Of a stretch of 64,000 nt of DNA, positions 40,267 through 56,919 are shown piece by piece. The stretch covers positions 51,021-115,020 of the forward strand of contig JAMCPL010000010.1 in assembly GCA_023379675.1 (NCBI GenBank), in the 5' to 3' direction. The notes beneath the pieces are model-generated. The model had not been told where the DNA came from. It saw only the letters and a list, made by a program, of their open reading frames with translations, and made no database searches. Numbering within the stretch: the stretch's first letter is position 1; each line of letters begins with the position of its first letter. The DNA is from Actinomycetota bacterium (lineage in GTDB: Bacteria; Actinomycetota; Acidimicrobiia; Acidimicrobiales; JAMCPL01). The position numbers were made by a program, and so were the translations under genes.

Positions 40267-40845
40267 ATGATGCGGAAACACGTGACAATCGATAATCTTT
40301 CTGGTAAGGAGAGCATGGAGTCAGGAGGGAGGCCGGATCGCGGCCCAGGCATGCTCGAGACCGGTTCGGTCCTAGGCGGCGCTAGCGGTAGCGCTGCGAG
40401 TAGCGACACAGGCGGCGGCGGTGATGATCAGCCACCTGCCACAGAGACGGTAGGCCAGCCTGCCAAGGTCATGAGGATCGGGATGATGGTCAGGCAGTTG
40501 CTGGAAGAGGTACGCCAGGCACCGCTCGACGAAGCCAGCAGGGTGCGGATGAAGGAGATATATGAGACCTCTGTCGCTGAGCTGGCTGGAGCTCTGAGTC
40601 CCGAGCTCTCCGAGGAACTTGATCGCCTGTCCATACCTTTCGAGGGGACCGCACCCTCGGAGGCTGAGCTTCGGGTGGCTCAGGCTCAGCTTGTGGGGTG
40701 GCTGGAAGGGCTCTTTCATGGCATCCAGGCCACGCTGGTAGCCCAGCAGATGGCCGCCAGGGCTCAGCTGGAGGAGATGCGGAGCCGGGAGCTGCCCTCT
40801 GGCATGCAGGACACCGTTGCGCATAGACCGGGCACCTATCTCTGA
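40267..40845 (+). CDS. bpa: Bacterial proteasome activator Bpa/PafE-like (DUF2587)
   Basis: AKVMRIGMMVRQLLEEVR..LDEASR.R..EIYETS..EL...LSPEL..EL..L.....PSEAELR.AQAQLVGWLEGLFHGIQ with a C-terminal ..PGTYL* (compare the GQYL 20S-docking motif). The start is uncertain (ORF track 40186). Confidence 0.75.
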   Translation: MMRKHVTIDNLSGKESMESGGRPDRGPGMLETGSVLGGASGSAASSDTGGGGDDQPPATETVGQPAKVMRIGMMVRQLLEEVRQAPLDEASRVRMKEIYETSVAELAGALSPELSEELDRLSIPFEGTAPSEAELRVAQAQLVGWLEGLFHGIQATLVAQQMAARAQLEEMRSRELPSGMQDTVAHRPGTYL

Positions 40846-40896
40846 TCTTTCGCTATCTCTGATCTTTCGCTATCTCTGACCTTTCCCTATCTCGAG
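40837..40896 (+). repeat. 17-nt tandem repeat x3.5 (TATCTCTGATCTTTCGC) beginning inside the last bpa codons
   Basis: Units lie at 40837-40853, 40854-40870 and 40871-40887 (2 mismatches), with a partial unit at 40888-40896. The first unit contains TAT CTC TGA, which encodes Y-L-stop of bpa. Confidence 0.9.
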
Positions 40897-40938: not shown

Positions 40939-41047
40939 ACACGATCTGTTTTGTAGCTTCAAGAGCCATTGCGCCGGTGAAATTGTTTGATGAGGTGGGT
41001 CGCATATACTACACGATCCGTTTTGTAGCTTCAAGAGCCATTGCGCC
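40939..41047. repeat. Repeat-spacer-repeat unit 1: 37-nt direct repeat x2 (1 mismatch) with a 35-nt spacer
   Basis: ACACGATC[T/C]GTTTTGTAGCTTCAAGAGCCATTGCGCC occurs at 40939-40975 and 41011-41047. The spacer is GGTGAAATTGTTTGATGAGGTGGGTCGCATATACT. Confidence 0.9.
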
Positions 41048-41188
41048 AGGTGCATCGTGTCGCTTGACGACCGAGGATGCGTCGGGACGTGGGTTGTGCT
41101 AATGATTGTAACCATAGGCCGCGACCACCGGCGAACCGGCTCCGTGGTCTGCATGGCGCACCACTACTAGTGATAGAGGAGGTCCATA

Positions 41189-44983: not shown

Positions 44984-45682
44984 GTGGTTATGGGATTTGA
45001 AGTTGACACAAGAGATTGTTCCATCCTGAGTGATTCCGAGTTCGAGGCCATGGCTGAGCTGGCAGGTGGAAGAGCTGGATTGTTCGATATAGGGTTTCTT
45101 TCTAAGCAGAGGGACGAGTGGGTGCTGGTCTGTACGGTGAAGGAAGGCTCGAAGTTGAGGGCTTATTCCTTTTTCACCCTCGAAAGGATTGGTGGTACAC
45201 CAGCAGTGCTGATCGGTGTGGCCGATAGCGACGGAACCGGGAAGTCTGCAAAGGCGGTGGATCTGCTGCTGGCGGAGCACTTCAGAAAGGCGGTACTGGC
45301 CTTTCCCGACGAAGACGTGCTGGTGTGCGGGATGGCGATCTTTCCTGCCGTATACTCGGTGTTCGGCGGTCTGAACGATGTCGTTCCAAGACCTGGATAC
45401 AAGCCGACTGGCGAGGAAAGAGCGTGGGCTAGGCGTATTGCAAGACGGTTCAGCGCCGATGGCCAGATAGATGACAGGAACTTCGTGTTGAACTGCGGTG
45501 GTCGGCCCACTACGGGTGTGCTCAATCTGGGGAAGAGCCGTACAGGCGAGGAACCGGACCATGACATCATGTCGCTTTTTGGAGGGATAGATCATGCTTC
45601 TGGCGATAGGATTGTGGTGTGCGGGTGGGCCATGGCGGAAGATCTCGCATCGGGGGCGTTGCTCAAGAGGCCAAGCGGGTAG
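44984..45682 (+). CDS. Hypothetical protein (232 aa)
   Basis: Long ORF with a GGAGAG-like purine tract upstream. No family was recognised. An equally long antisense ORF (44906..45595) makes the strand less certain. Confidence 0.45.
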   Translation: MVMGFEVDTRDCSILSDSEFEAMAELAGGRAGLFDIGFLSKQRDEWVLVCTVKEGSKLRAYSFFTLERIGGTPAVLIGVADSDGTGKSAKAVDLLLAEHFRKAVLAFPDEDVLVCGMAIFPAVYSVFGGLNDVVPRPGYKPTGEERAWARRIARRFSADGQIDDRNFVLNCGGRPTTGVLNLGKSRTGEEPDHDIMSLFGGIDHASGDRIVVCGWAMAEDLASGALLKRPSG

Positions 45683-45696
45683 TCACGCTCTAAGCC

Positions 45697-45805
45697 GTCG
45701 TGCCAGTGTGTGTTTCCACGGGTGCCAGAAGCCTGCGTTCCTGAGGTTGCTCTGTTCACCGAATCGGTGTCGTGCCAGTGTGTGTTTCCACGGGTGCCAG
45801 AAGCC
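45697..45805. repeat. Repeat-spacer-repeat unit 2: perfect 37-nt direct repeat x2 with a 35-nt spacer
   Basis: GTCGTGCCAGTGTGTGTTTCCACGGGTGCCAGAAGCC occurs at 45697-45733 and 45769-45805. The spacer is TGCGTTCCTGAGGTTGCTCTGTTCACCGAATCGGT. Confidence 0.92.
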
Positions 45806-45894: not shown

Positions 45895-46647
45895 TCAAGG
45901 ACGGGGGATCAACATTGCCAGAGTCTTGTAACAATGGCCGTCATGTGGTGCGTCCAAGGCCACCAGCAGGCAATAGGGGCGAAATCCTATTGCTTCCTCG
46001 AGTTCCTTGGCTTGGAGCGTTCCGCTCTTGGTCATGCTGAGGATGCGTTGCAGATTTCTGCTGGAGACCGGCATTATTGTGTCCACCGTACCGGAGGTCA
46101 GCCTTGCCCATGATGAGCCGTCGTCCCGTAGGAACAATAATATATGGTCCACCTTCTTGATCAGGGCGACCGATGGGTGTTGCCCGTTGAAATCCCAATA
46201 CGGTGCGGACCAGCCTGGGAATCCGAGCAAGTTCTTCGGGAGGGGGGTCGCAATCTCCTTCAGCAGCATCCGGGCGAATCGGGCCGCCAGGAAGCCATGC
46301 AGCTGGGGAGTACCGGTAACGGTGATGGCGTCTGGAAATGCTGGATCCTCGGCACTTGTTTCTGTGGAGCACTCCGCCGACAGGACGTCAAACGACTTCT
46401 CTTCCTGGGTGGGAGCTGTTTCGACATCTGGCGACATACCGGCTTGCTGGCTGGTGTTACCGCCTATATGAGCAATGTTATCATTCATATAACGATCATC
46501 TCGTAGTCGTATCATGCTATGCCTGTAGGGGTCGATTCCTATGACATCATTGCCAACGTCGGCAAGGAACACGACAACTTGCTGACCAGAGAGTTTTGAG
46601 CGGAGAGAACGCAGGCGCCTACCCGTGAGTGGCCTGGATCTCTTCAA
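45895..46647 (-). CDS. Hypothetical protein (250 aa), possibly DNA-binding
   Basis: The N-terminal LTGRRLRSLRSKLSGQQ.. segment is faintly XRE-HTH-like, followed by an acidic Ser/Thr linker and a C-terminal globular part. No family was recognised. Confidence 0.5.
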   Translation of the reverse strand: MKRSRPLTGRRLRSLRSKLSGQQVVVFLADVGNDVIGIDPYRHSMIRLRDDRYMNDNIAHIGGNTSQQAGMSPDVETAPTQEEKSFDVLSAECSTETSAEDPAFPDAITVTGTPQLHGFLAARFARMLLKEIATPLPKNLLGFPGWSAPYWDFNGQHPSVALIKKVDHILLFLRDDGSSWARLTSGTVDTIMPVSSRNLQRILSMTKSGTLQAKELEEAIGFRPYCLLVALDAPHDGHCYKTLAMLIPRP

Positions 46648-46837
46648 GCGTGATGCCTTTCAAGTGGCGGTTGGCTGGACATGTGCAATTCCCATGTATG
46701 CATGTGCGCCATTATACTCATGCCCGGCGTGCGCTTGCTACCCGGTGCCGACGCAGGCGATGTCGAGGGAGCGCCATTATGCTCATGCCAGCTGCTTGTT
46801 TAGCGCAATGAACCTCAATATTGCTATGATTGTAGGG

Positions 46838-52387: not shown

Positions 52388-52499
52388 GAAGTGGCGGTCT
52401 ACACGGGTTCGACACCTTCAGGCCCCAAAGGGTCTAACGGGAATCTTGGACCAATCGACTCATGAAGTGGCGGTCTACACGGGTTCGACACCTTCAGGC
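52388..52499. repeat. Repeat-spacer-repeat unit 3: perfect 36-nt direct repeat x2 with a 40-nt spacer; one copy covers the LysR stop codon
   Basis: GAAGTGGCGGTCTACACGGGTTCGACACCTTCAGGC occurs at 52388-52423 and 52464-52499. The spacer is CCCAAAGGGTCTAACGGGAATCTTGGACCAATCGACTCAT. Confidence 0.92.
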
Positions 52500-53398
52500 A
52501 TAGGTTGCCCATGTTTGGCTGTTCTCGTCACTTCTTGCAGTGAGGCGATTGCCGCCTTGGCCGATGCCGACGGTATGCTCCGCGATCGGCGGGCTATCCC
52601 GACTTCACGAGTGGCTATGCCGTCTACCTTTACCAGCCTGACGCGATCTTTTAGATGGAATGGGACCGCACTGGTGGGCAACAGGGCAAATCCGTTACCG
52701 TCGAAGGCGAGCGATGCTATCAGGCGTATCCCGTCCAACTCGGCGGCAGCCTTTAGACTGACACCGTGAGACATTGCCGCCTGGTCCAGTTCGTTACGGA
52801 ATGTGGTTCCAGGCGCTGGCAGCAGCAGTTCGAGGTGGGCCAGATCGGCCATCTGGATTGAGTCCATGCCCGGAACTGGATCCGCGTCACGCGGTACCAC
52901 GAGGTTGATTTCTTCTGTGAAGAGGGGGGTGGCGGTCAACTCCTTGCTGGTTACCGGGAGCGTCATGACAGCAAAGTCCAGCCTACCTGTAATCAGGAGC
53001 TGGCTGAGGGTGTTACTGGTTCCGTCATGTATCACCAAACGAATGGCAGGGTGAGCCCGTTTCAGGGTGGCATGCAGCCTTGGCGTGATCCATCGTGCCG
53101 TGGTACCTATCATGCCGATCCGTACGGTACCGGACAGTTCTGCCTTCAGCGCGCCTATGTCGTCCCATATGGCTTCCATCTCTCCGAGCATCCTGTACGC
53201 GCGGGCGGCAACCGCTTCACCTTCTGGGGTGAGATCCGACGTCGATCTATCGATGAGTACCGTCCCAAGCTCGTTCTCCAGCTTTGTCACGTGTGCTGAG
53301 ATATTTGATTGGACTGTTCCAAGCAAGTCCGCTGCGCTGGAAAAGGAACCTTTTTCATGTACCGCCAGTAGGGCTCGTAGCTGTTTTATATCCATCAC
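52475..53398 (-). CDS. LysR family transcriptional regulator
   Basis: MDIKQLRALLAVHEKGSFSSAADLLGTVQSNISAHVTKLENELG HTH followed by a LysR substrate-binding domain. Confidence 0.92.
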   Translation of the reverse strand: MMDIKQLRALLAVHEKGSFSSAADLLGTVQSNISAHVTKLENELGTVLIDRSTSDLTPEGEAVAARAYRMLGEMEAIWDDIGALKAELSGTVRIGMIGTTARWITPRLHATLKRAHPAIRLVIHDGTSNTLSQLLITGRLDFAVMTLPVTSKELTATPLFTEEINLVVPRDADPVPGMDSIQMADLAHLELLLPAPGTTFRNELDQAAMSHGVSLKAAAELDGIRLIASLAFDGNGFALLPTSAVPFHLKDRVRLVKVDGIATREVGIARRSRSIPSASAKAAIASLQEVTRTAKHGQPMPEGVEPV

Positions 53399-55490: not shown

Positions 55491-56579
55491 ATGTTCGGAG
55501 TACCCAGTACGGGAAATGTCACAAGTATGGTGGATTTGGAGGCGCTACTTGGTGCGGATGCCGAGGACCTGCTGAGCCATACCTGCAAGGGTATTCCTAA
55601 AGAGATGCTGGAGTTGCCAGGGCCGGATTACCTGGACAGAGTGATGTCGGTCAGTGACCGTAACGCAACCGTCCTACGCAATCTGGGCACGCTCTATTCG
55701 CATGGCAACCTTGGAGGGACGGGATACTTGTCCATTCTCCCGGTGGATCAGGGCATCGAGCACTCAGCTGCAGCGAGCTTTTCAAAGAATCCCGCGTATT
55801 TCGATCCGTTCAAACTCTGCGAGCTGGCCGTGGAAGGGGGTTGCTCCGGTATCGCAACCACCCTAGGAGTGCTTGGCATGACTGCGAGGAAGTATGTCCA
55901 CAAGATACCATTTATAGTCAAGCTCAACCACAATGATCTGCTCGTCTACCCCAACCGGTACGATCAGATCATGTTCGCGTCGGTTCGTCAGGCCGCGGAT
56001 CTGGGTGCGGTGGGTGTCGGTGCTACGATATACTTTGGGTCGGAGGAGTCCTCGCGGCAGCTACAGGAGGTGTCAAGTGCGTTTGCCGAGGCTCATAGGA
56101 TGGGAATGTTTACCGTGCTGTGGTGCTACCTACGTAACAACGCGTTCAAGACGCCGGACGCGGATTACCATGTCGCAGCCGATCTCACCGGGCAGGCCAA
56201 TCACATTGGTGTGACCTTGGAGGCAGATCTGATAAAACAGAAACAGCCTGAGCTGAACGGTGGCTATACGGCGTTGCACTTCGGCAAGACCGATCCTCTT
56301 GTATACGATACCCTTGCCACGGATCATCCCGTGGATCTTACCCGTTGGCAGGTGGTCAACTGCTATTCAGGTCGTATCGGGCTGATCAATTCCGGTGGTG
56401 AGTCAAAGGGGGACACTGATCTGGCACAGGCCGTGCGAACAGCTGTCATTAACAAGCGAGCCGGTGGGACCGGGCTCATTGTAGGGCGGAAATCCTTCCA
56501 GCGTCCCATGGATGAAGGAGTGAAGCTGCTCCACGCCATCCAGGGTGTCTTTGCTGACTCCCGGATCACCATAGCCTGA
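55491..56579 (+). CDS. fbaB: Class I fructose-bisphosphate aldolase (FbaB/DhnA type)
   Basis: It is close to the E. coli FbaB pattern ([17 protein letters not shown]...[47 protein letters not shown]). The start is taken at the ATG at 55491, 8 nt after GGAGGA. Confidence 0.88.
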
Positions 56580-56595
56580 CGTACTTCGGTCTGCT

Positions 56596-56711
56596 GCGGC
56601 CATTATGCCGCAGCCCGGTGTCTTTACCAGCACGCGGGCACGCCGGTCGTGAGCGCTACAATGCGATGTAATTAGGCGGCCATTATGCCGCAGCCCGGTG
56701 TCTTTACCAGC
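56596..56711. repeat. Repeat-spacer-repeat unit 4: perfect 36-nt direct repeat x2 with a 44-nt spacer; each copy carries a hairpin
   Basis: GCGGCCATTATGCCGCAGCCCGGTGTCTTTACCAGC occurs at 56596-56631 and 56676-56711. GCGGC-CATTAT-GCCGC forms a stem-loop. The first copy starts 17 nt after the fbaB stop. Confidence 0.92.
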
Positions 56712-56919
56712 TATCGGATCACCATAGTGTAGCGCGTAGAAAGCGTTAAGAAACCAGCTATTCGCGCTAACAACGCGTTAAAAGGCTTCCATTCCGGTAG
56801 CTACACGTGTATAACGGTGCATATGGTACTGATTGACGGATGCAGGCTATGACCTGGCCCGAGATATTACGGATAGTTCATGAGCTGCGGCATGGCGGCC
56901 GCAGCGGATCTGGAGAGTC

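Follow-up and report, generated by a model that had tools for sequence, protein, structure and literature searches.

Spacer-like insertions flanked by duplicated target DNA in core chromosomal regions of an uncultured Acidimicrobiia bacterium

Genomic context and structure of unit 2

The 64-kb stretch that was analysed (referred to as the window) comes from the chromosome of an uncultured member of the Acidimicrobiia found in mine tailings and mine drainage. It is identical to JAMCVI010000011.1 (MAG GCA_023486005.1) over the 20.4 kb that were compared. Housekeeping genes of the region include the dcw cluster, ileS, lspA, a sigma factor gene, bpa, dnaE and a histidine kinase gene, and are accompanied by lysR- and marR-type regulator genes and kdpABC. 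A phage or plasmid origin of the window was rejected, as megablast searches against phage and plasmid collections were empty and the gene content is chromosomal, with housekeeping functions. Along nearly the whole window (1–64000) the GC skew is positive, and most genes lie on the plus strand; no tRNA genes were found in the window. Just downstream of dnaE, a 212-nt gap between two convergent genes holds the repeat pair under study (unit 2):

44990–45682, plus strand: gene for a conserved hypothetical protein (230 aa), upstream neighbour of unit 2, no Pfam family
45697–45733, plus strand: copy 1 of the repeat (A), 37 nt of duplicated target, perfect copy
45734–45768, plus strand: spacer B2, an inserted fragment of 35 nt, TGCGTTCCTGAGGTTGCTCTGTTCACCGAATCGGT
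45769–45805, plus strand: copy 2 of the repeat (A), 37 nt of duplicated target, identical to copy 1
45895–46647, minus strand: gene for a conserved hypothetical protein (250 aa), downstream neighbour of unit 2, no Pfam family

The repeat, GTCGTGCCAGTGTGTGTTTCCACGGGTGCCAGAAGCC, forms a perfect direct pair of 37 nt with a period of 72 nt, and the original prediction had placed both copies and the 35-nt spacer correctly. When up to three mismatches were allowed, the 37-mer matched the 64-kb window at these two positions (0.00 matches expected), no further copies were found in the whole window, and 100 dinucleotide-preserving shuffles yielded no match at all. An internal direct repeat, GTGCCAG..GTGCCAG, had also been pointed out; it is present in the window copies and reads GTGCCGG..GTATCAT in the sister species described below, so that it is real in the window and not conserved.

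Three public runs, which belong to two studies, support unit 2 with independent k=31 contigs. The contig graph of X1 led from the upstream flank (9.8×) through the 37-mer (17.6×) and a 95-nt spacer contig (9.4×) to the downstream flank (13.7×), and the X2 and X5 contigs (also k=31) gave the same proportions; the 37-mer node thus had about twice the depth of the flanks in X1, X2 and X5, and the spacer contig single depth. Two other MAG assemblies (L090 and L091) carry unit 2 in identical form. The source is a metagenome-assembled genome, for which an assembly artefact or chimera has to be considered, but the structure recurs with consistent depths in the contigs of all three runs and in three separate MAG assemblies, which leaves this explanation a negligible probability.

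It had been suggested that the unit, which adjoins ORFs of no recognisable family, may be an accessory patch. The 230-aa protein has 3383 homologues across Acidimicrobiales and its gene is also called in relatives, a syntenic counterpart of the 250-aa gene is called in L081, L085 and L088, and both genes stay beside dnaE in relatives at 81–91 % nucleotide identity. Because the flanking genes are conserved core genes adjoining dnaE, the idea of an accessory patch was abandoned. Further downstream, the 250-aa gene and an SDR gene diverge from a promoter region between them, in which the motif GCGCCATTATACTCATGCC occurs twice (46706–46724 and 46771–46789, 65 nt apart). The sister species has copies of 28 nt spaced by 58 nt; the first copy is kept even in a relative of 81 % identity, and the motif resembles the core of the unit 4 repeat (GCGGCCATTATGCCGCAGCCCGGTGT). 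It may represent a family of regulator-binding sites.

Unit 2 has the geometry of a CRISPR array, namely direct repeats of 23–55 nt and unique spacers of similar length, and with two repeats and one spacer it has the minimum possible size for one. The 84 kb of contig around the units hold housekeeping genes only; neither a cas gene nor a CRISPR array was found within them, and the cas genes and leader of a canonical array are thus missing from this region. No promoter-like or terminator-like site was found at unit 2.

Further units and alleles in related genomes

A scan of the whole 64 kb for pairs of perfect repeats (18 nt or longer, period 30–200 nt) yielded exactly four, all with periods of 72–80 nt, and the 72-nt period that had been predicted to be common to units 1 and 2 was borne out. 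The three further units are as follows:

40939–40975, plus strand: unit 1, copy 1 (A), 37 nt, between bpa and dnaE
40976–41010, plus strand: unit 1, spacer of 35 nt
41011–41047, plus strand: unit 1, copy 2 (A), 37 nt, one mismatch to copy 1, period 72 nt
52388–52423, plus strand: unit 3, copy 1 (A), 36 nt, at the 3' end of a lysR-type gene
52424–52463, plus strand: unit 3, spacer of 40 nt
52464–52499, plus strand: unit 3, copy 2 (A), 36 nt, period 76 nt
56596–56631, plus strand: unit 4, copy 1 (A), 36 nt, between a deoC-like gene and kdpA
56632–56675, plus strand: unit 4, spacer of 44 nt
56676–56711, plus strand: unit 4, copy 2 (A), 36 nt, period 80 nt

The MAG contigs L090 and L091 carry units 1–3, all in identical form. 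The repeat sequences of the four units are mutually unrelated and belong to no shared or known repeat family: none matched the CRISPR-DR families of Rfam, and no hairpin common to the four was found. A sequence-specific role of the repeat is not supported on these grounds. Rfam searches at gathering score returned no match in the whole window, and at E≤5 only two chance-level matches between 40.8 and 56.9 kb, both outside the units. Tandem Repeats Finder called none of the four units; a tandem repeat or VNTR repeats its whole unit head to tail, and the spacers here are unrepeated and unrelated to the flanks.

Five assemblies represent a sister species with about 91 % nucleotide identity to the window. 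Three of them (L081, L089 and L094) have an empty unit 2 site, in which a single copy of the 37-mer region is followed by the downstream flank. The repeat is 81 % identical to its orthologue there (7 of 37 positions differ), which is similar to the neighbouring intergenic DNA, whereas the two window copies do not differ at all; the duplication therefore arose long after the species had split. The other two assemblies (L087 and L088) carry GTGCCGGTGTGTGTTTCCAGAGGTGTCATAAG, an unrelated insert of 45 nt and GTGCCAGTGTGTGTTTCCAGAGGTATCATAAG, that is, a 32-nt duplication with a period of 77 nt, the boundaries of which lie 3 and 2 nt from those of unit 2 in the window. L088 and L089 are 99.87 % identical outside this difference, and the copies in L088 are each a single base away from the empty allele. 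In that allele, the left-hand variant is the one of copy 1 and the right-hand variant the one of copy 2, so that it may have arisen in the sister species by secondary loss through recombination between the repeats. Whether or not it did, comparison of the alleles indicates that the two species gained different inserts at one site. The gap of more distant relatives at this position is 32 nt only. Loci of the sister species were also sought by using the L19 and MerR proteins of the window as queries; these searches returned the window's own lineage only.

In a canonical array, the repeat is conserved between relatives and the spacers differ, whereas the unit 2 repeat is a single-copy sequence in three of these assemblies. 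The sister-species assemblies show a single copy without a spacer, or else a spacer of another sequence, rather than two copies with a conserved spacer, and aligned flanks reveal no larger duplicated segment from which the pair could derive. The sister-species alleles thus support the original suspicion that the units are repeat–spacer insertions which relatives need not share. The RNA structure that had been proposed for the unit, in which sequences following the two copies would pair and enclose spacer and copy 2 in a loop, was not supported. The intergenic region folded no better than shuffled sequences on the plus strand (z=0.10) and gave z=−2.9 on the minus strand, the similarity of the spacer to its context and the proposed pairing were within chance, and the pairing is impossible in those relatives that lack the spacer.

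Empty sites in close relatives were found for units 1 and 3 as well as for unit 2. The unit 1 insert is absent from the sister species, which has an insert of its own 27 nt downstream (unit 1'): a 37-nt duplication of 41038–41074 around a 34-nt spacer, which is likewise present in X6 and X7. Units 1 and 1' sit just upstream of a block (41050–41185, upstream of dnaE) that is conserved in relatives down to 81 % identity. This block includes TGTGCTAATGATTGTAACCATAGGCC and the stem-loop-like GACCACCGGCGAACCGGCTCCGTGGTC, has no Rfam match, and could be a promoter or leader element. On its other side, unit 1 is adjoined by a 17-nt tandem repeat, CTATCTCTGATCTTTCG, of which 3.4 copies lie at the end of bpa (40836–40893); in L085, this position is taken by a short tandem repeat of another kind.

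The unit 3 site is empty in the sister species, with exactly 76 nt missing. A single copy is traversed without a branch by contigs of X1, X2 and X6, whereas X5 and the MAGs have the insert; over 7.7 kb, the X1 contig otherwise shows no mismatch to the window. Strains that are otherwise identical lack the insertion, which is present in X5 and the MAGs and is therefore still segregating. Copy 2 (52464–52499) overlaps the end of the lysR-type gene (minus strand, 52475–53398), namely its stop codon and the eight codons before it, so that the end of the gene was duplicated and the gene was not disrupted.

The spacer contig of unit 4 is flanked by A in X1, X2 and X5. The unit is nested in an older, degenerate pair (56544–56574 and 56697–56727), the period of which is 73 nt without unit 4. 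The region upstream of kdpA is a hot spot (window positions 56544–56727; contigs of X1, X2, X5 and X6): a 34-nt segment (56584–56617) flanks an insert of 39 or 51 nt in some strains, and closed cycles of 73 or 85 nt were seen at unit 4 in the contig graph of some strains. A hairpin at 56590–56620, GCTGCGGC-CATTAT-GCCGCAGC, has about seven times the depth of the host and is therefore multicopy in the metagenomes.

Similar structures were seen outside the window. An in-frame unit (L100:3221–3346) lies on the same contig about 3.6 kb upstream of the window start, in the part of ftsY that encodes the variable N-terminus. Its period is 72 nt, split into a 54-nt duplication and 18 nt of new sequence, and the protein reads PSTVKGDISSEARGTHD - RSAAATR - PSTVKGDISSEARGTHD; this split is at odds with a ruler of 36–37 nt. 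L001 and L002, which are Acidimicrobiia from acid mine drainage (AMD) with about 70 % DnaE identity, have two-copy units with periods of 70–71 nt, two of which flank dnaE:

L001:5398–5514: two-copy unit, duplication of 47 nt
L002:9167–9265: two-copy unit, duplication of 28 nt
L002:13066–13169: two-copy unit, duplication of 33 nt

The right boundary of the L001 unit lies in the loop of an 11-bp hairpin (GATGGAGAAGT ... ACTTCTCCATC), and a unit upstream of dnaE is present in L002, too, which belongs to another genus. Acidimicrobiia loci other than these, about 1.6 Mb in total, contained almost no such units. Repeat pairs in two other Acidimicrobiia loci, L056 and L067, were set aside as ordinary multi-copy tandem repeats.

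Sources of the inserted fragments

None of the four spacers was similar to its surroundings above chance on either strand (unit 2 spacer against its context of ±400 nt: p=0.65 and 0.8 for the two strands). No other copies of the unit 2 spacer were found in the window or in the fetched loci, and a donor for B2 was not found in scans of viral and genome contigs, in phage and plasmid collections or in the runs. Exact scans of viral contigs with the cores of B1–B4, of metagenome contigs with B3 and B1, and of genome contigs with A2, B1 and B2 gave no matches, and neither did blastn searches of phages and plasmids with all spacers and two donor contexts. Short matches of B4 (15–19 nt: 17/17, 15/15 and 18/19) in three high-GC loci have unrelated contexts and were put down to chance.

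The one donor scan that succeeded used the flank of the B3 donor as query, and returned three copies in another Actinomycetota MAG (FK_Sedi_A_Bin.95), two of which match the spacer in 36 of 36 positions:

L103:1891–1926: donor region in a tnpB element, identical to bases 1–36 of B3
L104:1057–1092: donor region in a tnpB element
L105:536–571: donor region in a tnpB element, identical to bases 1–36 of B3

The donor lies in the 3' part of a 554-aa tnpB gene with OrfB_IS605 and Cas12f1-like TNB domains, and therefore belongs to a multicopy element of the IS200/IS605 family. The three tnpB copies are 92–94 % identical to one another; the region from which spacer 3 was taken lies about 160–200 nt upstream of the tnpB stop, near the expected position of the guide-RNA scaffold. 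The 36-nt sequence also sits in very deep, polymorphic contigs of the same metagenomes, where the exactly matching donor form reaches 44–317× compared with 14–73× for the host, and is 2–6 times deeper than the host.

B1 (40976–41011, 36 nt) also occurs in X1, where a 347-nt contig joins one of 12.2 kb and the flanks have 35 % GC, and the same donor context occurs in an X6 contig; a peptide read from this context matched no protein. By these sequence matches, B1 is assigned to foreign, AT-rich DNA and B3 to a transposon. The junctions of both inserts are blunt and show no more than 1 nt of microhomology, and no PAM-like flank common to the two donors was found. Prespacer-sized foreign inserts joined without homology are thus documented by B3 and B1 (the B2 donor was not found). 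The unit 3 insert has TCAT beyond the donor match, and other inserts contain small internal duplications; such extra bases suggest untidy repair synthesis.

These donors bear on two explanations of the units. Ordinary tandem duplication by replication slippage, giving nascent minisatellites that diverged later, would fit the recurrence of the 72-nt period, and the closed 73- and 85-nt cycles at unit 4 in some strains are consistent with later amplification by unequal recombination. The spacer, however, is a copy of neither flank and is revealed as new sequence by the empty-site alleles, no unit was called by Tandem Repeats Finder, and two spacers have donors elsewhere. An origin by slippage is very improbable and is already largely refuted by the empty sites.

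A working orphan mini-CRISPR array, the crRNA of which would guide a Cas effector encoded elsewhere, is nearly as improbable. The repeat–spacer–repeat geometry fits, and two of the spacers (units 1 and 3) have counterparts in foreign or transposon DNA; four unrelated repeats are, however, beyond one processing enzyme, and they have neither a CRISPR-DR match nor a common hairpin. The unit 2 "repeat" is moreover a single-copy intergenic sequence in relatives that drifts as neutral DNA would (81 % identity), there are no cas genes nearby, and no promoter-like site reads into the unit.

Mechanism of insertion and comparison with known systems

Target duplication, empty sites, independent re-use of a site and polymorphism among strains were all observed. 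The favoured explanation, to which we give about even chances, is that unit 2 arose by ectopic integration of a spacer-sized fragment, most likely by Cas1–Cas2 of the host acting off-target outside an array ("neo-CRISPR"). A 35-nt unrelated fragment would have been joined into intergenic DNA at two staggered cuts 37 nt apart, and gap filling would then have left a copy of these 37 nt at each end of the insert, in the order repeat–spacer–repeat. The same process would have acted repeatedly and recently in this Acidimicrobiia lineage, with some inserts drawn from mobile or foreign DNA; recurrence is deduced from the four units, from hits at the same or overlapping sites in the sister species and from one unit that is still polymorphic. 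The agent would be the CRISPR adaptation integrase, Cas1–Cas2, integrating prespacers off-target in a host whose CRISPR system is assumed to have native repeats of about 36–37 nt and spacers of about 35–36 nt. We infer the enzyme, and do not read it from the locus, because the 84 kb examined contain no cas genes. The product at unit 2 is probably a neutral scar or by-product and not a working crRNA gene.

Repeats of 36–37 nt with spacers of 35–41 nt are the geometry of several CRISPR types, and periods of 72–77 nt are typical of CRISPR systems with 36–37-nt repeats. Cas1–Cas2 is, to our knowledge, the only enzyme family that pairs a duplication of such length with an insert of such size. Known transposons duplicate about 2–15 bp of target, far below 32–37 nt; a transposable element with target-site duplication was rejected, as the inserts are unique fragments of 34–45 nt without copies in the window or loci and the duplication is 32–37 nt.

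Duplications measure 36–37 nt in five of the six intergenic events of the two sister species, and 32 nt in one. The left boundary reads GCC|G at four of the six sites, and the duplicated segment begins with G, on either strand, at 8 of 12 ends; GCC precedes the boundary on the plus strand at all four window units. This boundary bias suggests a weak sequence preference for the target, which would also account for the re-use of one site.

Several lengths count against the Cas1–Cas2 reading: a 32-nt duplication in the sister-species event at unit 2, duplications of 28 and 33 nt in L002 and of 47 nt in L001, and the 54-nt duplication with 18 nt of new sequence in ftsY. The periods of all events (70, 71, 71, 71, 72, 72, 72, 73, 76, 77 and 80 nt) are tighter than either the duplication or the insert length, and such a constant period is not predicted by a simple repeat-length ruler model. 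The extra bases in some inserts, the empty search for a B2 donor and the lack of a PAM-like flank common to the two donors and of cas genes in the 84 kb also weigh against this reading.

The main rival to Cas1–Cas2, clearly less probable than it, is cas-independent break repair: a staggered double-strand break would have been filled in, which duplicates the overhang, and a stray fragment captured as filler, with rejoining by Ku/LigD-type end joining or polymerase template switching. The variation of the duplication from 28 to 54 nt across events, the untemplated extra bases and small internal duplications in the inserts and the lack of cas genes in the 84 kb examined speak for it. The copies in L088, each one base off the empty allele in genomes that are 99.87 % identical, would fit error-prone fill-in, but would also result from loss by recombination between the repeats. 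Against break repair, no known process leaves overhangs of about 36 nt at a break, the inserts vary little in size, and the two traced inserts match their donors over exactly 36 nt, with blunt ends and no microhomology. The 36–37-nt duplication in five of six intergenic events of two sister species also argues against it, as does a site that was struck twice within 3 nt.

A dedicated integrase or fragment-capture system other than Cas1–Cas2, which would place fragments of about 36 nt into preferred intergenic sites, is unlikely. The same or overlapping sites were re-used in two species, and a site upstream of dnaE was used in a third genus; the period stays near-constant at 70–73 nt while duplication and insert lengths trade off, and this clade is richer in events than the other Acidimicrobiia loci, which amount to about 1.6 Mb. 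However, no candidate gene was found, and a known enzyme family already explains everything except the length trade-off. More broadly, we consider it doubtful, though rather less so, that a form of fragment capture unlike ordinary CRISPR adaptation repeatedly writes transposon or foreign pieces of about 36 nt into the chromosome, each event lengthening a preferred intergenic site by about 72 nt. Such capture may be run by a not-yet-recognised enzyme, and could be the way in which new CRISPR arrays are born in nature, or could seed the 70–80-bp minisatellites of actinobacteria.

Taken together, the units are most simply explained as natural, recurrent and partly ongoing spacer-like insertions in core DNA, produced by CRISPR integration gone astray. 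The creation of new arrays by off-target Cas1–Cas2 integration was described for E. coli by Nivala et al. 2018, as presented in bioRxiv 10.1101/148544, which treats the evidence from natural genomes as only circumstantial. How new CRISPR arrays originate is an open question, and the locus offers a series from the wild: empty sites, fresh insertions with identical copies and older ones with diverged copies, one site re-used in two species, an insertion segregating among near-identical strains and an insert traced to a transposon. If the integrase is confirmed, the units would be direct evidence that ectopic spacer integration occurs naturally and is tolerated in core chromosomal regions, and would show which sequences attract it. 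If these genomes have no matching CRISPR system, the units would instead point to an undescribed insertion mechanism.

Among canonical arrays, the DR locus of Mycobacterium tuberculosis (type III-A) has repeats of 36–37 nt and spacers of 35–41 nt. The units resemble it in these lengths, in a period of about 72–77 nt and in spacers that vary between strains, and resemble canonical arrays in the loss of spacers by recombination between repeats and in at least one spacer derived from a mobile element. They differ in that each locus has one spacer and its own unrelated "repeat", the sequence of which is not conserved, and in having no leader, repeat family or adjacent cas genes. Transposons and casposons likewise leave a direct target duplication from staggered cuts and gap filling, but theirs measures about 2–15 bp and surrounds a defined element with conserved ends, whereas the window lineage duplicates 32–37 nt around a fragment of 34–45 nt that is unique to each insertion. 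The MIRU/ETR VNTRs of mycobacteria are also intergenic, with periods of 50–80 bp and strain variation; they repeat the whole unit head to tail, whereas only A is repeated in the window and new sequence lies between the copies.

Ectopic spacer acquisition within arrays is documented for CRISPR1 and CRISPR3 of Streptococcus thermophilus (PMC7999890). There, too, a spacer is placed away from the canonical leader-proximal repeat, but into a bona fide repeat inside an array, whereas the targets in the window are unrelated chromosomal DNA. The closest likeness in form is to the neo-CRISPR loci of E. coli type I-E as presented in bioRxiv 10.1101/148544 (Nivala et al. 2018): a spacer-sized insert lies in non-CRISPR DNA, a target of repeat length is duplicated, and the result is two repeats and one spacer in which the "repeat" is the site's own sequence. 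In the window lineage, unlike E. coli, the length of the duplication is not strictly constant and no cas genes have been linked to the host. The E. coli loci arose under overexpression of Cas1–Cas2, whereas the events described here are natural ones in uncultured populations, with several loci within 16 kb and one site re-used independently in two species.
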